Part shown: piece after piece, positions 15,143 to 26,363 of the stretch
How the letters are laid out: each line of letters starts with the position of its first letter
How positions within the stretch are numbered: position 1 is the stretch's first letter
DNA from: an uncultured Pseudomonadota bacterium
GTDB taxonomy: Bacteria; BMS3Abin14
Assembly (NCBI GenBank): GCA_964454175.1
Contig: CAYVSA010000024.1
Location: 1 to 26,363 of the forward strand
DNA: 26,363 nucleotides
Direction: 5' to 3'
Notes under the pieces: generated by a model
Seen by the model: the letters and a program-made list of their open reading frames with translations, nothing else
Database searches by the model: none
Told to the model about the DNA's origin: nothing
Position numbers and translations under genes: made by a program

Positions 15143-16831
15143 TTGAGAGGTTTGTACAAAGCTGTTTTTTTTATTTCTGTTTTAGCAGTACTTGCGGCAT
15201 GGATGCCGAAACCGGCTGATGCAGCGCCCGGGACATACTATGTCTCGGAATTTTCACCCATCGAAGATGGAAATGTCGTTCGTGCCCAGGCTGCGGCCTT
15301 AAAGCTTGCGAAGGAAACCGCAGTTAAAAAGGCCCTGTCGGACCTGTTCCCTGAATATACATACATGGCTTTTCGCACCTATCTCACAGAGAGCATTGTT
15401 CCAGGTGCTGACATATTCGTCACTAACTATAAGATAGATAATCAGGACATAAGCGATCTGGCATATTCGATCAACCTTACCGTGAAAGTGGATATGGAGC
15501 TTTTGAGGAAACGGCTCAACGAAGCCGGGCTGATCAAAGTACCGGGCAGCCCGCCTCTTGCTTCGATTTTTTTGACTCTGGACGTACCTCTGGAACTTGA
15601 TCAGGCCCAATATCTTGGGCGACTTGCCGATGTGGCTTTCAGCACAAAACTGGGCAGGGCTGGTTTGACCGTGATCCCTGTTCCTGTTGAAGAGGTCGAG
15701 ACGGAGGCAACCGACATTGAAGCTGGGATCCCGGAGATCGATCCTCTGCCTGCATTCAGGATAATTAGACCCCCGCAGGTGCCGGAAGCGCTTCTGGATG
15801 AAGGGTTAACGGCTATGACCGACCTGGCAGTGGGAGTCGCTTTCGTACAGGTTGGGGATTTTGAGGAGGATCAGGACGGAAAGAAAGTGCCTGTCAAGCT
15901 GAACACGCTTGTTATAGACACCGGCACCGGTCAGCCTGCTGTAGCTGACAGCAGAGAACTGACACTGGTAGTTGGTAACGATCAACAAAAGGTTTCTGGA
16001 AAAGGCCTTTTCAATGCCATTGAGGAGCTTTCAAAAAATATTGCCGCTCACCTGAAAAGCCAGTATGTGGAAAGGGAGACGGTATTTAACTCCTATGAAA
16101 TAACCGTTAGCGGGACCCTCACATCCTTTGTGATCAGAGAGCTCAATTACAGGCTCAAAACGAAGCTGGGTGAGAAGGCTTCCCTGCTTCCTGTTGCCTA
16201 CACAGGGGAGCGGGTGGATCTTGTATTGTATACTGCAAGAAGTCCGCGGGAAGTTGTGGACATCCTTAACGAACTGGAGCTTACGGGTTTCGGTTTGAAA
16301 GCTTCCATGCAGGAGGATACCATCACCGTTTTGGTGAATGAGGACCCGGAGGCGGTCAGGGGGGTCGTGGAGTATGGTCTGGATGTACCTTATTACAAAA
16401 GGATACCGGTTCCAGGCCTCGAGAATCCCGAGGATCTGAAAAAGACCGAGCTTGTTCCCTGGGCTGAACAGGAGGAAAACGGGACTATCTACACGGCAAA
16501 TATTGCTCCGCTGGGAATGGCTGTGATCGGTAAGATGAATTACCCTCAGGACCACGATTTCTATCACTTTCTCCTTCAGGAAAACACCAGGAGAGTGTCC
16601 TTCAGGGTAGAATTGACGGGCCCGGACGAGCAGCAGTCCAGGGTGCGGGTTTTTACACCCTCCGGGAGGCTTATTTCAGACACCAGGGCGTCAAGAAGAG
16701 GGCGAAATCTCTACCATACGTTCAAGGTTGAGAAAGATACCAAGGCCGTGATCCTGTCTGTTGAGGATTACCTGGGGCGGCACAAATCGCTATTTTCCTA
16801 CGTGCTCAATGTAGATGCCGGGGTTAAGTAA
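15143..16831 (+). CDS. Secreted hypothetical protein (DUF2066/FlgT-N-like N-terminus, PPC-like C-terminal beta-sandwich)
   Basis: GGAGG SD before TTG, signal peptide ending ADA. A..AALKLAKETAVKKAL...VTNYKI...LTVKVD pattern, and C-terminal EQEENG..TAN...G.M.YPQDHDFYHF resembling PPC-associated motifs. Domain names are by resemblance only. Confidence 0.8.
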   Translation: MRGLYKAVFFISVLAVLAAWMPKPADAAPGTYYVSEFSPIEDGNVVRAQAAALKLAKETAVKKALSDLFPEYTYMAFRTYLTESIVPGADIFVTNYKIDNQDISDLAYSINLTVKVDMELLRKRLNEAGLIKVPGSPPLASIFLTLDVPLELDQAQYLGRLADVAFSTKLGRAGLTVIPVPVEEVETEATDIEAGIPEIDPLPAFRIIRPPQVPEALLDEGLTAMTDLAVGVAFVQVGDFEEDQDGKKVPVKLNTLVIDTGTGQPAVADSRELTLVVGNDQQKVSGKGLFNAIEELSKNIAAHLKSQYVERETVFNSYEITVSGTLTSFVIRELNYRLKTKLGEKASLLPVAYTGERVDLVLYTARSPREVVDILNELELTGFGLKASMQEDTITVLVNEDPEAVRGVVEYGLDVPYYKRIPVPGLENPEDLKKTELVPWAEQEENGTIYTANIAPLGMAVIGKMNYPQDHDFYHFLLQENTRRVSFRVELTGPDEQQSRVRVFTPSGRLISDTRASRRGRNLYHTFKVEKDTKAVILSVEDYLGRHKSLFSYVLNVDAGVK

Positions 16832-16892
16832 GAAATTGGAAATTGGAACATTAGAAATTAGACATAGTTAGTTGGTATATTTTCTAATTTCC
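16832..16892 (+). repeat. Degenerate heptamer array with a short inverted copy
   Basis: GAAATTG-GAAATTG-GAACATTA-GAAATTA-GACATAG (16832-16867) right after the stop codon. TTTCTAATTTCC (16881-16892) is the reverse complement of GGAAATTAGAAA. Confidence 0.7.
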
Positions 16893-18847: not shown

Positions 18848-18916
18848 GTTTCAAGTTTCAGGTTGTGTAAAATGTGATCTTATGGATCTGAATTTCAATT
18901 TTCAATTTTCAATTTC
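18848..18916 (+). repeat. Heptamer tandem repeats, T-rich variant
   Basis: GTTTCAA-GTTTCAG-GTT (18848-18864) and ATTTCAA-TTTTCAA-TTTTCAA-TTTC (18892-18916). Confidence 0.65.
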
Positions 18917-18919
18917 TAT

Positions 18920-18948
18920 TTGACAAAGGATAGACATGTTGTTACTAA
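18920..18948 (+). promoter_or_regulatory. Probable sigma70 promoter of tRNA-Val
   Basis: Perfect TTGACA (18920-18925), 17-nt spacer, TGt-TACTAA (18943-18948), 14 nt before the tRNA, with an AT-rich upstream tract. Confidence 0.6.
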
Positions 18949-18962
18949 AACCGGCATCCTGT

Positions 18963-19037
18963 AGGCACGTAGCTCAGTGGGAGAGCACTGCCTTGACGCG
19001 GCAGGGGTCGGCGGTTCGAAACCGCCCGTGCCTACCA
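18963..19037 (+). tRNA. tRNA-Val (GAC)
   Basis: Acceptor stem AGGCACG/CGTGCCT, D arm GCTC-AGTGGGA-GAGC, anticodon arm CTGCC-TTGACGC-GGCAG, T arm GGCGG-TTCGAAA-CCGCC, encoded ACCA end. Confidence 0.98.
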
Positions 19038-19087: not shown

Positions 19088-19100
19088 CGGCCTGTGGTCG

Positions 19101-19195
19101 GGTCCCTGGACCCAGGACTCAAGACCTGCGTGGATTATTAACCTGGGCCCTGCCCGTCCTGAGTAAGTCGAAGGGGGCCATGGGACCTGGGACTG
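19101..19195 (+). repeat. Degenerate heptamer arrays in the thrS leader
   Basis: GGTCCCT-GGACCCA-GGACTCA-AGACCTG (19101-19128) and GGGCCCT-G[insert]GGCCAT-GGGACCT-GGGACTG (19145-19195). Confidence 0.7.
19153..19175 (+). mobile_element. 23-nt hairpin micro-insertion element, copy 1
   Basis: CCCGTCCTGAGTAAGTCGAAGGG inserted after TG. Removal restores GGGCCCT-GGGCCAT-GGGACCT. Homologous to 23202-23257 and 23211-23234. Confidence 0.65.
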
Positions 19196-19214
19196 TTTCT
19201 ACAGGAGAATTACG

Positions 19215-21140
19215 TTGAAGATCAAGTTCCCGGATGGATCACAGAGGGAATTCAGTGAGGGAACGACTCTTGACCAGATCGCTGCATCCATTGGCGGCCG
19301 CCTGGCAAAAGAGTCCCTTGCTGCTGACGTTGACGGCCAGCTCCTTGACCTGAGTACTTCTCTTGACGGGGATGCCGAAGTTAAATTCGTCACCTTCAAG
19401 GATCCGGAAGGGAAGGATATCTTCCGACACAGTGCTTCTCACGTTATGGCCCAGGCAGTGAAAAGGCTGTTTCCAGGGACCAAACTGGCCATAGGGCCTT
19501 CCATTGAGAACGGCTTCTACTACGATTTCGATCTCCCTGAAAAAGTGACAGAGGATGATCTCAAACGTATTGAAAAGGAGATGAACTCCATCACTTCGGA
19601 GGGGATAGCCTACGAGAGAGAAGAGTTATCCTCTGAAGATGCCATTGGGATGTTTGAAAGCATGGGGGAAGATTACAAGGTCGAAATGATCCGCGATCTT
19701 GATACAGAACAGATCTCTGTTTACCGCCAGGGCGATTTCGTGGATATGTGTCGTGGACCCCATGTACCATCCACCGGATTTATCAAGTCTTTTGCGCTAC
19801 TTAGTCTTGCCGGTGCCTACTGGAAGGGCGATGAGAAAAACAAGATGCTTCAGCGGATCTACGGAACCGCCTACCCTAAAAAGAAAGCCCTCTCAGAGCA
19901 CCTGAACAGGATCGAAGAAGCCAAAAAACGCGACCACAGGCGCCTTGGGAAGGAACTTGAGCTGTTCTCCATTGAAGATGAAGCAGGACCGGGATTTGTC
20001 ATCTATCATCCCAAGGGTGCGTTGGTCAGAACCATTCTGGAAGATTTTGAAAAGGCTGAACACCTCAAGAGAGGCTACCAGATAGTCGTTGGGCCGCAGC
20101 TCCTGAAGCTTGACCTGTGGAAGAAATCGGGTCACTTCGAAAATTATCGTGAGAACATGTACTTCACTGAAGTGGAAGACACACAGTACGGCATCAAACC
20201 GATGAACTGCCTCGCCCACATGCTGATATTCAAGTCCAGGATCAGGAGCTACCGTGACCTTCCTATAAGATATTTTGAGCTTGGGACAGTCTACCGGCAC
20301 GAAAAATCAGGAGTTCTTCACGGGCTTTTCAGGCTGCGCGGCTTCACTCAGGACGACGCACACATACTATGCACGCCTGAGCAGCTCAACTCCGAGATCA
20401 GGGGCGTCATTTCCTTTGTGAGAGACGTTATGGGCGTGTTCGGTTTCGAGTTCGAGCTTGAGATATCCACACGACCCGAAAAGTCCATCGGGTCTGATGA
20501 GGATTGGGAGAGGGCGACGGATGCCCTTGTCAGGTCCCTCGATGACGAAAATCTCCCCTACGGGATCAACGAAGGCGACGGAGCGTTCTACGGGCCTAAA
20601 ATAGATGTCAAGCTGAGGGATGCTATTGGCAGGATGTGGCAGTGCGCGACGATACAGTGTGATTTTGCTCTGCCAGAGCGGTTCGACCTTCATTACGTGG
20701 GTCAGGATGGCGAAAGACACCGGCCGATCATGCTGCACAGAGTGATACTCGGTTCTATCGACCGGTTCCTGGGAGTGCTTATTGAACACTATGCCGGAGC
20801 CTTTCCTGGGTGGCTGTCACCTGTTCAGGTGAAGGTGTTGACAATCACAGACAAGAGTGCTAACTATGCCGAAGCCGTGGCGGGAACACTGAAAACTCAT
20901 GGCTTTCGGGTCGAATTGGACCTTAGAAACGAGAAGATCGGTTACAAGATCAGAGAGGCCCGCCTGGAGAAGATCCCTTACATGCTTATTATAGGGGAGA
21001 GAGAAGCCGCGACCGGCGCCGTTTCCGTGAGGCACAGGGAAGACGGCGACAGGGGTGTTATGCCCCTTGACGGGTTTATTGAGAGCGTTTTGGACGAGAT
21101 TCAGGTCCCGGTCCTGAAAGAACAAGGAGGGAAGAAATAG
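19215..21140 (+). CDS. thrS: Threonine--tRNA ligase
   Basis: TGS domain, editing motifs [12 protein letters not shown] and [37 protein letters not shown] before TTG. Confidence 0.99.
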
Positions 21141-21652
21141 CCAAGGACAGAGGCACTCCGGTTAACGACAAGATCATGGCCCGCGAACTCCGGGTCATTG
21201 GAGCTGATGGTGAACAACTGGGGATAATGTCGAAGCAGGACGCCCTTGACGCCGCTCACGAGCTTGGTCTTGATCTGGTTGAAGTTGCGGGTACTGCCAG
21301 TCCCCCGGTCTGCCGGATAATGGATTATGGCAGGTTCAAGTATCAGCAGAGTAAAAAGGCCCAGGTCGCCAAGAAAAAGCAGAAGACGATCCAGATAAAG
21401 GAGATCAAGATCAGGCCGAAGACAGACAGCCACGATCTTGAAGTCAAGGCAAAACATGCCAGGCGATTTCTTTCCGAAGGCAACAAGATAAAGATCACAG
21501 TAAGGTTCAGGGGCCGGGAAATAGTCCACCCGGAACGGGGGCATCTCGTTCTGGATAAGTTTATTGGGCTGCTCGAGGAAGATTGTGTGGTCGAGCAGAG
21601 AGCCAAAATGGAGGGCAGGACCATGATATCGGTCCTTGCACCCAGCAGCTGA
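21137..21652 (+). CDS. infC: Translation initiation factor IF-3 (non-canonical ATA start)
   Basis: [46 protein letters not shown]. The frame extends upstream of ATG 21176 to ATA 21137, 6 nt after AAGGAGG. Confidence 0.96.
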
Positions 21653-21667
21653 GGAGTAGCAGAGCGA

Positions 21668-21868
21668 ATGCCCAAAATTAAGACGAATAGAGGCGCTGCA
21701 AAGCGGTTTGGACGCACCGGCAGCGGAAAAGTGAAGAGAAGGCGGGCTTATCACAGCCACATTCTCACCAGTAAGAATCAGAAACGCAAGCGGCGTCTGA
21801 GATCAGGGACGCTAATTCACAGTGCTGACGTAAAGAATGTCAGGAAGCTTATTCCCTACGTAAAGTAG
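21668..21868 (+). CDS. rpmI: 50S ribosomal protein L35
   Basis: [19 protein letters not shown]...HILT.K..KRKRRLR, between infC and rplT. Confidence 0.99.
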
Positions 21869-21884
21869 GTTCAGGAGAAGACAC

Positions 21885-22250
21885 ATGCCCAGGATCAAGA
21901 GGGCGGTACACGCCAGAAAACGAAAGAAAAAGCTCTTTTCAAGGGCCTCGGGTTTTCAGCATGGGAGGAAGAATCTCCTTCGCCAGGCCCGGACGACCCT
22001 TGAAAAGGCCATGCAGTATTCCTACAGGGACCGGAGAACTAAAAAGCGGGAGTTCAGAAAACTCTGGATCATCCGGATCAACGCTGCCGCGAGGAACCAC
22101 GGACTCTCCTACAGCCAGTTTATGTACGGGCTTGCCCAGGCGGGAGTTTCTGTGGACAGAAAAATGCTTTCCGACCTGGCGGTGTATGACGATGCTGCAT
22201 TTGCAGAACTGGTAAAGATCGCCGCAGGGAACTTAAAGCAGAGCGCTTAG
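21885..22250 (+). CDS. rplT: 50S ribosomal protein L20
   Basis: MPRIKR, YSYRDRR.KKREFRKLWIIRINAAAR, SYSQF, DRKMLSDLA. Confidence 0.99.
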   Translation: MPRIKRAVHARKRKKKLFSRASGFQHGRKNLLRQARTTLEKAMQYSYRDRRTKKREFRKLWIIRINAAARNHGLSYSQFMYGLAQAGVSVDRKMLSDLAVYDDAAFAELVKIAAGNLKQSA

Positions 22251-22257
22251 CAGGTTT

Positions 22258-22929
22258 ATGAAGCAGATCGCCGTAATCGGGCTTGGCCGGTTCGGGATGA
22301 GCCTGGCAGAGAGTTTGATGGAAAATCGATGTCAGGTCCTGGCCATCGATACCGACATGGAGCGTGTCAAGAAGGCTCAGACCTTCGTTACCCAGGCCGC
22401 TCAACTCGACTCCAAAGATGAAGCTGCACTTAAGGCACTGGGTATAACGGACATGGACACCGTTGTAGTGGCCATCGGCTCGGATGTCGAAGCCAGCATG
22501 CTGACCACAATGATCCTCAAGGACATGGGCGTAAAGCAGGTAGTGTCCAAGGCAGTTACCAAGCTTCACGGGAGGTTTCTGGACAGGATCGGGGCCGATG
22601 AGATCATTTACCCTGAAATTGATTCGGGGCGAAGACTTGGCAGGAAACTTTCCAGCCCCTCTATCGTTGAACAGATCGAGTTCGGCAACGAATATGGGAT
22701 ATTTGAGATAAACACCCCGCCAACGTGGGTTGGAAAGAGTATTGGCGACCTTGAAGTTCGCGCTAAATACGGTGTTGCCATCCTGGCGATCAGCACAAAG
22801 GCAGCCGAGGGTGATGAGACAGAAACAAATGTGTCGCCTGTGGCCAGTACGAAGCTTGCACAAGAGGATGTTGTTTTAATCCTCGGGCGCCACACTGAGG
22901 TTGAAAAACTCATATCGAATAAAGGCTGA
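22258..22929 (+). CDS. ktrA: KtrA/TrkA-family RCK potassium-uptake regulatory subunit
   Basis: IAVIGLGRFG Rossmann motif, D.VVVAIG.DVEAS, IGADEIIYPE, C-terminal RCK_C (WVGKSIGDLEVRAKYGV.ILAI). Single-RCK length (223 aa). Confidence 0.9.
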   Translation: MKQIAVIGLGRFGMSLAESLMENRCQVLAIDTDMERVKKAQTFVTQAAQLDSKDEAALKALGITDMDTVVVAIGSDVEASMLTTMILKDMGVKQVVSKAVTKLHGRFLDRIGADEIIYPEIDSGRRLGRKLSSPSIVEQIEFGNEYGIFEINTPPTWVGKSIGDLEVRAKYGVAILAISTKAAEGDETETNVSPVASTKLAQEDVVLILGRHTEVEKLISNKG

Positions 22930-23183
22930 GACGGAGAGTGGAGCCCTGATGGTCTTCCCAGAGAGGGAGGGTCGCTGGCTGAGAGCCTTCCCGAAGATCC
23001 AGGGTGATCCTTTCGCTCCCGAGCTTCCCGCCTGAACAGCGCAGTAGGGCGGGACGTAATACCCCACGTTACAGGGGTTGGGCAGTTCATTTGTCCGCCG
23101 AGAGTTCCCTTTCGGGGGAGAATCGGGGTGGTATCGCGGAGCTTGGAGGCTTCCGTCCCTGGGGATGGAGGCCTTTTGTGTTT
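22923..23183 (+). ncRNA. T-box riboswitch, Phe (UUC) specifier, upstream of pheST
   Basis: Stem I with GA/K-turn base, AG bulge CAGAGAG, distal loop GGCTGAGAG, specifier TTC at 23012-23014. Stem II GAA/AGTA, F-box CGTTA, T-box AATCGGGGTGGTATCGCG (23121-23138), antiterminator 3' side CGTCCCT. Confidence 0.93.
23147..23183 (+). terminator. T-box attenuator terminator
   Basis: AGGCTTCCGTCC/GGATGGAGGCCT stem followed by TTTGTGTTT, mutually exclusive with the antiterminator. Confidence 0.88.
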
Positions 23184-23201
23184 GTGGAGCATTAGAAATT
23201 G

Positions 23202-23257
23202 CCTGCCCTGCCTGTCCTGAGCATTGCCGAAGGGAGCGTTATTAATTAGCCGAAGGG
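23202..23257 (+). mobile_element. Hairpin micro-insertion element, outer copy (32 nt, interrupted)
   Basis: CCTGCCCTG (23202-23210) + AGCGTTATTAATTAGCCGAAGGG (23235-23257), inserted after TG. Removal restores AGAAATT-GGAAATT-GGAAATT. Confidence 0.6.
23211..23234 (+). mobile_element. 24-nt hairpin micro-insertion element, nested inner copy
   Basis: CCTGTCCTGAGCATTGCCGAAGGG inserted after the TG of the outer copy's CCCTG|AGC. Confidence 0.65.
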
Positions 23258-23350
23258 GAAATTGGAAATTGGGTAATGGGCCATGGGATCTGGGGCCTGG
23301 GCCCTGGGACCAGATAATACGGCAGCAGACCGGAGAGATGGAGCAGCATT

Positions 23351-24370
23351 ATGCAAAATAAGGTGGACGAACTGCTTAAAACGGCCAGGAGCGAGATCAA
23401 GGCCGCCGGTTCCAACAAAGAGCTTGATGCCATTCGTGTAAAATACCTCGGGAAAAAAGGTTTGATCACTGTTTTGCTGAAGTCCCTTGGTAAGCTGTCG
23501 GCTGAGGAGAGACCATCTGCCGGTCAGGCGGTAAACAAGGGCCGGGAAAAGCTCACTGGTCTGCTGGAGGGCAGAAAAACTGAGTTAGCAAGGTTTGAAT
23601 CGGAAAGGGTGATCAATGAAGAGGCCGTTGACATCACAATGCCCGGGATCACCAGGGAACTGGGTCACAGGCACCCTGTCAACATGGTCATGTCCGAGGT
23701 CCTTGATATTTTCAGAGGCATGGGTTTCTCGGCACGTAAAGGTCCTGAAATAGAGAATGATTACTACAATTTTGAGGCTTTGAATATTCCCAGAGACCAT
23801 CCCGCCAGAGATATGCAGGATACATTTTATTTCGATGAGGACACGCTTTTAAGGACCCACACTTCCCCCGTACAGATAAGGACCATGGAGACGGAACAGC
23901 CTCCCCTGAGAGTGGTTTCCCCGGGTAAGGTCTACCGGGTAGATTACGATGTGAGCCACACACCCATGTTCCACCAGGTTGAGGGTTTTTTGGTGGATGA
24001 GGATATTACTTTCAGCGACCTGAAGGGTGTACTCACCGAGTTTCTGAACCAGTTCTTTGGAAAGGGCACACCGGTAAGGTTCCGGCCAAGCTTCTTCCCC
24101 TTTACGGAACCCAGTGCAGAGGTGGATATTGGCTGCGTTATATGCTCCGGATCAGGCTGCAGGGTTTGTTCAGACAGTGGCTGGATCGAGATCCTTGGAT
24201 CAGGGATGATCCATCCCGAGGTTTTCCGGTTCGTTGATTACGACCCTGAAAAGTATACCGGATTCGCCTTCGGCATGGGGATGGAGAGGCTCACAATGCT
24301 CAGGCATGGAATAGATGATATACGGCTGTTTTTCGAAAACGATATGCGGTTTCTGGCGCAGTTCTCGTAA
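23351..24370 (+). CDS. pheS: Phenylalanine--tRNA ligase alpha subunit
   Basis: HPARDMQDTFY, LRTHTSPVQIR, HTPMFHQVEG, FPFTEPSAEVD, Cys cluster CVICSGSGCRVC, GFAFGMGMER. Confidence 0.99.
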   Translation: MQNKVDELLKTARSEIKAAGSNKELDAIRVKYLGKKGLITVLLKSLGKLSAEERPSAGQAVNKGREKLTGLLEGRKTELARFESERVINEEAVDITMPGITRELGHRHPVNMVMSEVLDIFRGMGFSARKGPEIENDYYNFEALNIPRDHPARDMQDTFYFDEDTLLRTHTSPVQIRTMETEQPPLRVVSPGKVYRVDYDVSHTPMFHQVEGFLVDEDITFSDLKGVLTEFLNQFFGKGTPVRFRPSFFPFTEPSAEVDIGCVICSGSGCRVCSDSGWIEILGSGMIHPEVFRFVDYDPEKYTGFAFGMGMERLTMLRHGIDDIRLFFENDMRFLAQFS

Positions 24371-24372
24371 TT

Positions 24373-24442
24373 AGAAATCAGAAATCAGAAATTGGGTAAT
24401 GGATATTAGACATGGGACATTGGACGTTGGACATTGGACGTC
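24373..24442 (+). repeat. Degenerate heptamer array between pheS and pheT
   Basis: AGAAATC-AGAAATC-AGAAATT-GGGTAAT-GGATATT-AGACATG-GGACATT-GGACGTT-GGACATT-GGACGTC: ten units in exact 7-nt phase. Confidence 0.85.
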
Positions 24443-24466
24443 ACCAACAGGCCGGATGGAGAGAGC

Positions 24467-26363
24467 ATGAAGATCAACCTGGACTGGCTATCGGATTACA
24501 TTGAAATTGACACCTCTGTTGAGATGTTGGCCGAAGACCTCACCATGGCGGGACTTGAGGTGGAGGGAATCTCGGAATATGAGGGAGATACCATTTTAGA
24601 GCTTTCCATTACACCGAACAGGCCCGACTGGCTGAGTCATTTCGGAGTGGCGCGGGAACTCGCTGTGATCTACGGCAAGAAGCTCAAAAAGCCCGGGACA
24701 GGGCTCAAGGAGTCCGATACTCCTGTAGAGGCCATGGCCAGTATTGAGACAGAGGATCCCAAAGGGTGTCCACGCTACAGTGCGCGGATCGTGACCGGCA
24801 TTAAGATCGGCCCTGCACCTGAAAAGATCTCGCACCGACTGGAGTCCGTGGATGTGAGGAGCATCAACAATATCGTCGATGCCACAAACTACGTGATGAT
24901 GGAGTTGGGTCAGCCGCTGCATGCGTTCGACTACAACCTGTTGGGGGAAAACAGGATAGTTGTCCGTAGAGCTTCTTCGGGAGAGAAACTCAAAACCCTG
25001 GATGGGCAGGAAAGGACCCTGCATGAGGAGGATCTCCTCATCTGCGACGGAAGGGGGCCGGTTGCTATTGCCGGGGTCATGGGGGGGGAGAGCTCCGAAG
25101 TCCGTGAAGATACTGTAGATCTACTCCTGGAAAGTGCTTGTTTCGATCCTGTTACGATCAGGAGGGGCTCCAAGAGGCTGGGCTTGTCAACCGAGGCTTC
25201 TTTCAGGTTCGAAAGGGGAACGGACCCGGATGGGACCGTAACTGCAGTGGACCGTCTTGCCCAACTCATCAGCGAGTGGGCTGGAGGGGAAATCTGCAGG
25301 GGAGTATTGGATGTATGTGCTCCTGCGGGACCTGAACCATCTGTTGAACTGCGTACACAAAGGGTTGCAAGGCTGCTCGGAGTGAAGATCCCCGACAGGG
25401 AAATATACTCCCTGCTCAAAGGTCTGGGACTCTCGGTTAAAAAGGGCAAAGCCGGGAAGTGGGCCGTTACACCTCCTGGTTTCAGAAGAGACATACATCG
25501 AGAAGAAGACATCGTTGAAGAGGTAGCGCGTATCTACGGGTATCAGAAGATACCGGCTACCATGCCGGCGGGGGCTACCATCCCGGTGAAGATCGATCCT
25601 GCGGATGCCCTGGAAAAGGATATGAAATCAGTCATGGAGGCACTCGGATTTTCTGAAGCAGTTACATACAGCTTCATCAGCAGGGGGGAACTGGAGGACC
25701 TTGGTGTTACTGGCGGGCCGGAGCCTGTCGCACTTTTGAACCCGATATCCGAGGAGATGAGGGTTATGCGGACCAGCCTCCTGCCCGGTCTTCTGAAGAC
25801 CGTCAAGCTCAATCTGGCGAGGAGACGGACAGGGAGCCTGTCAATGTACGAAGTCGGGAAAACTTTCCTGCCCTGTACATCCTGTGAGATCTCCGAGGAG
25901 AGACTTCGTATTACCGGGGTGATGACAGGTGCAAGGAGTGACAAATCATGGTACGGGGAGCGCGAGGCGGCAGACTTTTTCGACATAAAGGGAGTTGTGG
26001 TCAACCTCCTGTCGAAACTGGGCATCGGGGATGTTAAATTCATGGGAGAGGCTATCCAGTACCTTCACCCTGGTCAGGGCGCATGGGTGATGGCCGGTGA
26101 AAAAGTGGCAGGAACCGTAGGCACCCTTAATCCAGTGATTAGGGACAAGTACGGGATAAGCGAGTGGGCAGGCTGTTTTGAACTGGATGTGGAGGTCCTC
26201 GCACAGGCTGCTGCCGGCAAAAGGTCCTACAGACATATCCCCAAATATCCCGGTCTTTTAAGGGATCTCGCACTGGTTGCCCCAGTAAAGGTCAGCAGCA
26301 GGGATATAGAAGACGCTATCGTCGCAGCTGGCAGCAACCTCGAGTCCTGCCGCCTGTTTGACC
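24467..26363 (+). CDS. pheT: Phenylalanine--tRNA ligase beta subunit (3' partial; lacks B2 OB-fold)
   Basis: Manual translation from ATG 24467: MKINLDWLSDYI...LTMAGLEVE...LSITPNRPD, INNIVDATNYVMMELGQPLHAFD, EDIVEEVARIYGY, MRTSLLPGLL, PKYPGLLRDLA. Runs off the window end, so it is absent from the ORF track. Confidence 0.97.
   Translation, partial: MKINLDWLSDYIEIDTSVEMLAEDLTMAGLEVEGISEYEGDTILELSITPNRPDWLSHFGVARELAVIYGKKLKKPGTGLKESDTPVEAMASIETEDPKGCPRYSARIVTGIKIGPAPEKISHRLESVDVRSINNIVDATNYVMMELGQPLHAFDYNLLGENRIVVRRASSGEKLKTLDGQERTLHEEDLLICDGRGPVAIAGVMGGESSEVREDTVDLLLESACFDPVTIRRGSKRLGLSTEASFRFERGTDPDGTVTAVDRLAQLISEWAGGEICRGVLDVCAPAGPEPSVELRTQRVARLLGVKIPDREIYSLLKGLGLSVKKGKAGKWAVTPPGFRRDIHREEDIVEEVARIYGYQKIPATMPAGATIPVKIDPADALEKDMKSVMEALGFSEAVTYSFISRGELEDLGVTGGPEPVALLNPISEEMRVMRTSLLPGLLKTVKLNLARRRTGSLSMYEVGKTFLPCTSCEISEERLRITGVMTGARSDKSWYGEREAADFFDIKGVVVNLLSKLGIGDVKFMGEAIQYLHPGQGAWVMAGEKVAGTVGTLNPVIRDKYGISEWAGCFELDVEVLAQAAAGKRSYRHIPKYPGLLRDLALVAPVKVSSRDIEDAIVAAGSNLESCRLFD

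Follow-up and report, generated by a model that had tools for sequence, protein, structure and literature searches.

A tiny oriented DNA module, present or absent as an exact block, in two aminoacyl-tRNA synthetase leaders and across many bacterial phyla

Examination of a 26,363-nucleotide (nt) stretch of DNA from an uncultured Pseudomonadota bacterium (GTDB lineage BMS3Abin14; assembly GCA_964454175.1, contig CAYVSA010000024.1, positions 1 to 26,363; here called the window) showed three short homologous segments in the leaders of thrS and pheS. These segments are probably copies of a tiny, oriented, non-coding module (23 to 25 nt, or 32 nt with a longer loop) that is mobile in trans or was so recently. 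Its conserved words are (A)G-CCYG-YCCTGAGY…GYCGAAGG. The family is spread over many bacterial phyla; its members are found or missing as an exact block, with no duplicated target. They enter tandem 7-nt arrays, sites within or beside small palindromic repeats, and other copies of the module. This puts the module among the smallest mobile-looking DNA units known. An initial annotation of the window had described a tiny non-autonomous unit moved in trans, inserting after TG and carrying an imperfect DNA hairpin. The kind of object was recognized correctly, namely a tiny insert without target duplication, and mobilization in trans would account for it; the TG target and the hairpin did not hold up.

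All three segments lie on the same strand and share the window consensus CCYGYCCTGAGY-loop-GYCGAAGGG. Together with the host sequence on either side and two related arrays, they are arranged as follows.

19142-19152, + strand: host 7-nt array left of copy 1 (…CCT GGGCCCT G), interrupted by copy 1
19153-19175, + strand: copy 1, CCCGTCCTGAGTAAGTCGAAGGG, 23 nt, in the thrS leader; covariance model score 31.2 bits
19176-19195, + strand: host array right of copy 1 (GGCCAT GGGACCT GGGACTG)
23195-23201, + strand: last host unit, GAAATTG, before the 56-nt composite of inner and outer copies; 7/7 identity across the junction once the 56 nt are removed
23202-23210, + strand: outer copy, 5' part, CCTGCCCTG, split by the inner copy
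23211-23234, + strand: inner copy, CCTGTCCTGAGCATTGCCGAAGGG, 24 nt, nested within the outer copy in the pheS leader; 36.2 bits
23235-23257, + strand: outer copy, 3' part, consisting of AGC, an 11-nt loop region and GCCGAAGGG
23258-23313, + strand: host array after the composite (GAAATTG GAAATTG GGTAATG GGCCATG GGATCTG GGGCCTG GGCCCTG GGACCAG)
16831-16862, + strand: paralogous array with the same GAAATTG units and no element (an "empty" paralogue), family D2; GAAATTG stretch at 16832-16853
24369-24439, + strand: uninterrupted paralogous array in the pheS-pheT spacer (GAAATCA GAAATCA GAAATTG GGTAATG …), family D2 (24381-24402)

The coordinates and strand first annotated agree with the sequence, as does the TG that precedes each of the three window copies. 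The boundary of copy 1 slides by one G, with an alternative placement at 19152-19174; such sliding, which had also been noted at first, was seen again in one locus of another genome (L057; L numbers denote loci of the genome scan described below).

Excision had been described as restoring the host 7-nt arrays, and in silico it does so at both sites. Deletion of 23 nt from position 19153 in the thrS leader gave a lag-7 identity of 6/7 across the junction, and among deletion lengths from 0 to 70 this value was reached only at 23 and 30 (23+7), all others yielding at most 5/7. In the pheS leader, deletion of 56 nt from 23202 joined GAAATTG to GAAATTG with 7/7 identity (the same at 63), compared with 0/7 when nothing was deleted. 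At this site one copy went into another. Removal of 23211-23234 leaves a rejoined outer copy of 32 nt that perfectly matches the strict consensus; on this ground the third, nested copy proposed in the initial annotation is real. Copies of the same length class make up 7 of the 131 matches listed from the scan.

Chance is a poor source of these segments. The core CCTGAGY-N2-12-GYCGAAGG has two matches in the window against a mean expectation of 0.01, and two or more matches occurred in 0/100 dinucleotide shuffles. A covariance model trained on 116 copies, both window copies among them, was run with filters off and recovered only the two intact copies in the window, the next best score being 10.5 bits. 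A weak match on the opposite strand inside pheS (24267-24304, -; 23-nt loop, E = 1.2) was taken as chance.

Filled and empty sites and the range of the family

Species-representative genomes (a 596-Gb collection) were scanned with the reverse complement of the initially annotated consensus, which gave at least 124 stretches. Among the matches listed, 131 were counted in 123 loci, and the figures for the family are lower bounds. The scan pattern derives from the window's own copies, with most positions fixed. A scan of the source genome had been suggested as a check of the initial annotation; the present scan of species-representative genomes returned further copies (at least 131 matches) but no enrichment of a 5' TG, which precedes only 12 of the 131 listed. 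The genome from which the window derives is not represented among the listed matches.

Most matches were 24 nt (64) or 23 nt (55) long, seven were 32 nt, and five other lengths occurred once each. Although the pattern allowed 15 gap lengths between the two halves, the gap was 2 or 3 nt in 119 of the 131 listed matches. By our own arithmetic, chance would produce about 65 matches in the whole 596-Gb collection, spread evenly over the gap lengths. The concentration of 119 of 131 listed matches in two of 15 gap lengths therefore identifies the matches as homologous copies.

Several loci offer filled and empty versions of one site. In L026, a 24-nt gap distinguishes the filled from the empty version, whose flanks agree at 25/25 and 27/28 positions. 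L062 and L019 each contain a repeated GGGTGCCCCA hairpin in filled and in empty form, with gaps of 25 and 24 nt, respectively, and L057 holds another filled/empty pair with a 24-nt gap. The joined flanks of L063 correspond to an empty site in L025, exact over 24 nt. In L013 the unit interrupts a (TCACTCG)n array, and the copy in L089 likewise lies in a 7-nt array. No target duplication was found at L026, L019, L062, L057, L063/L025 or L013, where at most one base slides. The clean gaps of 24 to 25 nt between near-identical flanks therefore define the unit as a discrete insertion module. With the window arrays, these pairs substantiate the initial description of an oriented unit that is precisely present or absent without target duplication.

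Nesting is not confined to the window, since copies sit in the loop of other copies in L023, L049 and L094. Head-to-tail copies occur in L113, L037, L089, L084 and L121, and copies on both strands of one locus in 2 of the 123 listed loci (L104 and L108). The GGGTGCCCCA repeat, a frequent host of the micro-element, has several copies per locus, each followed by a variable hairpin and closed by TGGGG or TGGGA. It was found in the Acidobacteriota loci L062, L019, L052, L060, L074, L078, L119 and L003 and was a source of filled/empty pairs. A truncated copy in L061 (4821-4860) retains only the 5' half (AGCCTGCCCTGAG), with the closing TGGGGA of the host directly after it, which suggests an internal deletion of a resident copy.

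The listed matches come from about 18 phylum-level groups, with lineages taken from record titles. The 123 listed loci are distributed as follows.

Acidobacteriota: 51 loci
Chloroflexota: 13 loci
Proteobacteria: 12 loci
Verrucomicrobiota, Kiritimatiellae and Lentisphaerae: 10 loci
Patescibacteria: 7 loci
Bacteroidota and Ignavibacteria: 7 loci
Planctomycetota: 5 loci
Nitrospirota: 3 loci
Binatia: 3 loci
Syntrophaceae and Syntrophobacteraceae: 2 loci
Unclassified: 2 loci
Nitrospinaceae, Myxococcales, Dormiibacterota, Dadabacteria, Cyanobacteria, Aegiribacteria, Stahlbacteria and Vulcanimicrobiota: 1 locus each

Cultured carriers among the listed loci are Gelidibacter, Aequorivita, Leeuwenhoekiella, Edaphobacter, Occallatibacter, Sphingobium and Leptolyngbya. 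Cyanobacterial copies were found in Leptolyngbya (L067) and on plasmid p4 of Planktothrix agardhii (L124). The latter was the only full copy (23/24 bases, E = 0.4) among four records retrieved by a BLAST search of the 62-nt composite against plasmids, a method that is insensitive for a 24-mer with a free loop. This 24-nt copy (L124 1501-1524; NZ_LR882948.1 114016-114039) lies inside a coding sequence for a hypothetical protein, on the opposite strand; it may be an in-frame insertion into the gene, or the coding sequence may be spurious. Phage carriage was considered and discarded, as the one phage record had a partial 22-nt match that was taken as chance.

Searches of Rfam found no family over the unit in the window or in 26 loci, at gathering thresholds or with E values up to 10 or 1. 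A description of the unit was not found in the literature on REP-like, small dispersed, heptamer and stem-loop repeats, a survey that did not extend to the original Nostocaceae paper on small dispersed repeats (SDRs), and literature searches with its sequence strings returned only primers or nothing.

Sequence and folding of the unit

The alignment of 116 copies reads nAG-CCTG-CCCTGAGC-(2-3 nt)-GYCGAAGGG. What is conserved is the primary sequence of both halves, around a free loop of 2 to 3 nt or about 11 nt. CCTG follows a G in 120 of the 131 listed copies, and an A stands one base earlier in 78 of the 131; taken together, these two bases are AG in 74, GG in 21, CG in 13 and TG in 12. Farther upstream there is no common word, the 4-mers before CCTG being diverse and the commonest, AGAG, accounting for 29/132.

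The proposed insertion after TG consequently describes the window and not the family. At the three sites where the insert can be placed uniquely (L019, L063 and L013), the inserted piece itself begins with AG or CG, followed by CCTG…CGAAGG, and the host resumes with G. The host bases in front of it are CCCAT in L019, GCCGGC in L063 and TCACTC in L013, so that the last host base is T, C and C. The insert lacks the extra first base in the window and in L057.

With the looser anchor CCTGAG…GAAGG, 171 hits were obtained, in which the 4-nt tag was CCTG in 115, CCCG in 13, GTCA in 8 and TTTA in 3, the rest being scattered (including TTCG). This spread of tags makes the unit of the window one tag class of a broader set. 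One sister form carries (T)GTCA before a TCCTGAG…GAAGGA stem, often with long loops (L100, L101, L123, L034, L106, L055, L072 and L038). The CCTG-tagged unit was repeatedly found inside the 3' arm of this sister form, at GAAG^GATC (e.g., in L100, L101, L123 and L034).

The initial annotation had regarded an imperfect DNA hairpin as a recognizable feature of the unit. The proposed stem consists of four Watson-Crick pairs, two G·A mismatches and one or two further pairs. The two short window copies have predicted DNA folding energies of only -0.2 to -0.7 kcal/mol and RNA folding energies of -2.7 to -2.9 kcal/mol, the z-scores being positive, and the composite folds worse than 198 to 200 of 200 shuffles. 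The family gave the same picture: across 57 distinct copies, the mean minimum free energy was -1.54 kcal/mol against -2.85 for shuffles with DNA parameters and -4.06 against -5.59 kcal/mol with RNA parameters, and folding was weaker than that of shuffles on both strands with both parameter sets. The hairpin was rejected as a defining feature, since the unit, in the window as in the family, folds no better than shuffled sequence.

Pair counts in the 116 copies (four of six pairs invariant, two varying on one side only, none changed on both sides) are uninformative because the scan pattern had fixed the pairs. Wobble was also discarded as a clue to the folding strand: the excess of T·G (37) over C·A (6) is an artefact of the pattern, and 43 unselected hits give 6 versus 5.

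Genomic surroundings of the copies

Genes in the loci were called crudely, as open reading frames (ORFs) of at least 100 amino acids covering 86% of the DNA. Outside these ORFs lay 44 of 77 copies, of which 13 were between convergent, 24 between co-directional and 3 between divergent genes, while 4 had no called ORF on one side. Between co-directional genes, the unit was antisense in 16 cases and sense in 8. The usual position is 30 to 100 nt past the 3' end of a gene; the window copies instead lie in 5' leaders. The unit is dispersed well past the thrS and pheS leaders, with copies in many other loci. One 32-nt copy (L080 301-332) lies in the 23S-5S rRNA spacer of a Vulcanimicrobiota metagenome-assembled genome, antisense to the rRNA. 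L074 has a match to the Acido-Lenti-1 RNA just below threshold (1372-1417; 35.1 bits against a gathering score of 37), which has nothing to do with the micro-element.

Proteins encoded in the flanks were compared by all-against-all BLAST of 2047 ORFs, covering the flanks at the 79 loci that are 2 kb or longer, about 10 kb per genome. Six protein clusters occurred in three or more loci, namely ABC ATPases, two-component proteins, short-chain dehydrogenases, acyl-CoA dehydrogenases, TonB-type outer-membrane barrels and a Mur ligase. Among these six shared clusters from the flanks of 79 loci, no transposase or reverse transcriptase recurred. The flanking genes belong to unrelated housekeeping families, and no family recurs beyond the usual large paralogue families.

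When the unit was excised in silico, the joined flanks had a mean folding energy of -5.30 kcal/mol, compared with -4.28 and -4.21 kcal/mol for nearby and random 40-mers (Mann-Whitney p = 2e-4 and 9e-5). The junction fell within a hairpin in 43/128 joined flanks versus 125/512 nearby 40-mers (Fisher p = 0.043) and in a hairpin loop in 20/128 versus 58/512 (p = 0.23).

The window has a GC content of 52% and carries, on the + strand, mutS, an amidase gene, glnD, rarA, mutL, miaA, pgsA, thrS, infC, rpmI, rplT, a TrkA-like gene, pheS and pheT; a gene for a GGDEF response regulator lies on the opposite strand. Features next to the three copies, and the arrays of the window, are the following.

18963-19034, + strand: tRNA gene upstream of the thrS leader, 66.1 bits; its anticodon loop reads GAC, so it was read as Val
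19215-21140, + strand: thrS (TIGR00418, 738 bits), with a TTG start 39 nt past the end of copy 1
22919-23163, + strand: T-box leader of pheS, 85.4 bits (Rfam gathering score 93)
23351-24370, + strand: pheS (TIGR00468, 350.6 bits), with its ATG 93 nt past the end of the composite
46-70, 100-115, 505-541, 16831-16862, 18891-18921, 19090-19195, 23258-23313 and 24369-24439: tandem 7-nt arrays

The T-box is missed by a default Rfam scan because its score stays below the gathering score. Its terminator hairpin (a terminator-like site) spans 23145-23176, and the composite begins 25 nt past this hairpin. No T-box or other known leader was found in the thrS leader by the Rfam scan. The TrkA-like gene (22258-22929; weak matches, best 60.7 bits) lies between rplT and the pheS T-box and interrupts the otherwise conserved thrS-infC-rpmI-rplT-pheST cluster. 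In the pheT ORF (24434-26362), the bacterial PheT model aligned only from profile position 158 (protein residue 52), so that the usual N-terminal domain seems to be missing or the start miscalled. The 7-nt array of the pheS-pheT spacer reaches right up to the predicted TTG start of pheT.

Tandem 7-nt units such as GAAATTG, GGGNCNT and GGACATT fill many intergenic regions of the window. The 17-mer GGGCCATGGGACCTGGG was found at 19175, 23278 and 23292 (array family D4), and GAAATTGGAAATTGGGTAATGG, located at 23258, recurs at 24381 with 91% identity (24381 stretch versus 23258-23279). As several arrays have longer stretches in common, the arrays themselves constitute a dispersed repeat family. 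Geobacter metallireducens has dispersed four-unit heptanucleotide elements (GGGACCG) at 49 sites, according to the part of PMC2700814 drawn on here, and the host arrays of the window are dispersed 7-nt arrays of the same kind. The likeness concerns the host arrays, not the inserted unit; in that part of PMC2700814, no inserted micro-element is mentioned.

Known relatives and possible routes of spread

We favor the view that the module is non-autonomous mobile DNA, now or in the recent past, which a trans-acting activity encoded elsewhere would copy into new sites. Such an activity would recognize the conserved primary sequence, not a stable hairpin, and would most likely act on transiently single-stranded nucleic acid, as may be exposed in tandem arrays or at hairpin tops. 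Only tentatively do we suggest the wider claim that a unit of about 24 nt is, or was recently, mobile in at least 18 phylum-level groups and is the smallest and most widely distributed bacterial mobile DNA described. Because the unit has no stable structure and no recognizable partner gene, its mover would in that case be either a housekeeping function that is present almost everywhere and works on single-stranded nucleic acid, or a promiscuous enzyme, spreading horizontally, that is not yet linked to any repeat.

A number of observations speak against mobility. No candidate mover enzyme was found among the flank protein clusters of the 79 loci. Empty sites for the two window positions are paralogous arrays only, the filled/empty pairs being drawn from other genomes. 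The evidence for the family, too, comes from other genomes, through a pattern built on the window's own copies; as this pattern fixes most positions, it accounts in part for the conservation, for the G that follows the unit and for the pair counts. Beyond the seeded match, 563 kb of flanks yielded only 2 strict and 6 loose copies, a sparseness unlike that of a bursting element. The preference for hairpin tops is real but modest. Presence and absence give no direction, and precise loss would look alike. Finally, the weak predicted folding removes the usual handle of hairpin-recognizing transposases.

Among the alternatives, the best placed is that an HUH (Y1) single-strand transposase of the IS200/IS605 or RAYT kind moves the unit in trans, by hairpin recognition and with a short fixed target; we consider it unlikely. 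Elements of the IS200/IS605 family depend on structure at both their left and their right end, and their target is a fixed word of 4 to 5 nt, on whose 3' side they insert. The unit resembles them in its strictly oriented insertion and in the lack of target duplication at any filled/empty pair, and an activity on single-stranded DNA is plausible for its entry into arrays and hairpin tops; the joined flanks, somewhat more structured than the controls, are compatible with entry into extruded single strands. It differs in being 23 nt long with one weak stem, not two end hairpins, and in having no fixed word before the insert, be it at the uniquely placed sites (CCCAT, GCCGGC, TCACTC) or in the form of TG. 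None of the six protein clusters shared by three or more loci is a transposase. REP/RAYT pairs are generally lineage-specific, which is unlike a near-identical sequence in about 18 phylum-level groups. Two defining features of an HUH mechanism, the fixed target word and the structured ends, were looked for and not found.

REP and REPIN repeats tagged with GTAG are small extragenic tag-plus-stem repeats thought to be moved in trans by RAYT, according to the parts of PMC3733652, PMC3116915 and PMC3184786 used here. The 4-nt word before the short stem of the unit resembles the layout of tag and stem described in PMC3733652, in part, and the unit is likewise extragenic, mainly between convergent and co-directional genes and rarely between divergent ones (3/44). 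It lacks the GTAG (GTRG) tag, in place of which CCTG and CCCG stand in 115 and 13 of the 171 anchored hits, and a stable GC-rich palindrome of 6 to 13 bp. Inverted dimers are almost absent (2 of 123 listed loci), head-to-tail copies being more frequent, and the same sequence recurs at low copy density across phyla.

Closer in several respects are the CGTC-tagged REPs, which, in the sections of PMC3733652 covered here, have stems of 8 to 9 bp starting with A-T pairs, loops of 4 to 5 nt and a CCA tail. Their superfamily carries the tags CGTC, TGTC or CCTC, and no associated transposase gene was found for it (PMC3733652, same sections). Like the unit, they combine a 4-nt unpaired tag with a short stem-loop, occur in several phyla and lie mostly after coding regions (PMC3733652, in part). 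For the unit, no transposase recurred in the flanks of the 79 loci, a small sample at about 10 kb per genome. The unit is distinct from the repeats in these sections of PMC3733652 by its CCTG or CCCG tag, a stem of 4 Watson-Crick bp starting with C-G or T·G, the lack of a tail and an unconserved 3' flank. The GTCA-tagged sister form comes nearer to the layout of the CGTC-tagged REPs and recalls their TGTC tag variant (PMC3733652, in part). The words CCTG, CAGG, CTGAG and GAAGG were not found in the portion of the text of PMC3733652 that was covered, nor were CCTGAG, GAAGGAT, CGAAGGG and ATCCTGA in four of its supplementary files.

Slightly less probable than an HUH transposase is that the unit is not mobile itself and represents a host-selected cis element, such as a protein-binding site or a module of transcript 3' ends, gained and lost by recombination between repeats. 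Its strongly conserved primary sequence, the preference for positions 30 to 100 nt past gene 3' ends with few copies between divergent genes (3/44), the low copy density, and the frequent location in or beside terminator-like flank hairpins would all suit such an element. Homologous recombination, however, fails to explain the clean 24- to 25-nt gaps in unrelated hosts (arrays, palindromes, the unit's own loop), and the same 24-mer in about 18 phylum-level groups is left without an explanation. Moreover, the window copies are in 5' leaders, not at 3' ends, and the nested copy disrupts the outer one.

We regard an RNA intermediate, either inserted into a transcript or reverse-transcribed into DNA, as an improbable means of spread for the unit. 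A route of this kind is said to have been proposed for cyanobacterial small dispersed repeats. The repeats SDR1 to SDR8 of the Nostocaceae, ascribed to Elhai et al. 2008, are reportedly 21 to 27 nt long, often located inside tandem 7-nt repeats, self-nested and non-coding, and their recent mobility has reportedly been inferred. The parallels in size, nesting and 7-nt arrays with the repeats as so reported are close: the unit is 23 or 24 nt long in 119 of 131 listed matches, occurs in 7-nt arrays and nests in itself. The comparison with SDR1 to SDR8 is one of reported features, not of sequence, and the unit differs in its range of about 18 phylum-level groups and in the non-cyanobacterial nature of the window (glnD, T-box). 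The repeat SDR5 inserts at a short host motif, HIP1, as stated in the part of PMC5861425 consulted. Two stem positions show C-to-U exchanges (in 31 and 5 of 116 copies) by which a G·U pair is preserved; these would also suit an RNA route, as would a predicted RNA fold slightly better than the DNA fold. Yet in the hits that the pattern had not selected, T·G closing mismatches (6) are as common as C·A ones (5), the antisense excess between co-directional genes (16 versus 8) is not the sense bias expected for entry into transcripts, and no recurrent reverse transcriptase was seen around the 79 loci.

Hardly credible is the remaining proposal of a regulatory RNA motif of aminoacyl-tRNA synthetase leaders or of a chance or slippage product of 7-nt arrays: both window sites are indeed synthetase leaders in slippage-prone arrays, but the leader motif, named as the rival in the initial annotation, is ruled out because the unit was found after unrelated genes in diverse contexts with no recurrent neighbor family beyond large paralogue families, in a 23S-5S spacer and on a cyanobacterial plasmid, the expectation by chance in the window is 0.01, and slippage of 7-nt units cannot yield a 23-nt non-periodic block that shares conserved words with other phyla.

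Returning to the mobile module that we favor, it comes nearest to two known kinds of repeat, the REP-like tagged stem-loops and, by their reported features, the small dispersed repeats of cyanobacteria. If its mobility is true, the lower size limit of bacterial mobile DNA would be extended well past one cyanobacterial family, and the mobilizing activity would have to be either very widespread or very promiscuous. How transposase-less REP-like repeats spread is an old open question, which would thereby become testable. Units of this kind occur in leaders and 3' regions of essential genes (here thrS and pheST, the latter under T-box control) and can alter transcript structure there. They also inflate lists of spurious small ORFs and may be used to type strains, as clean markers of insertion.

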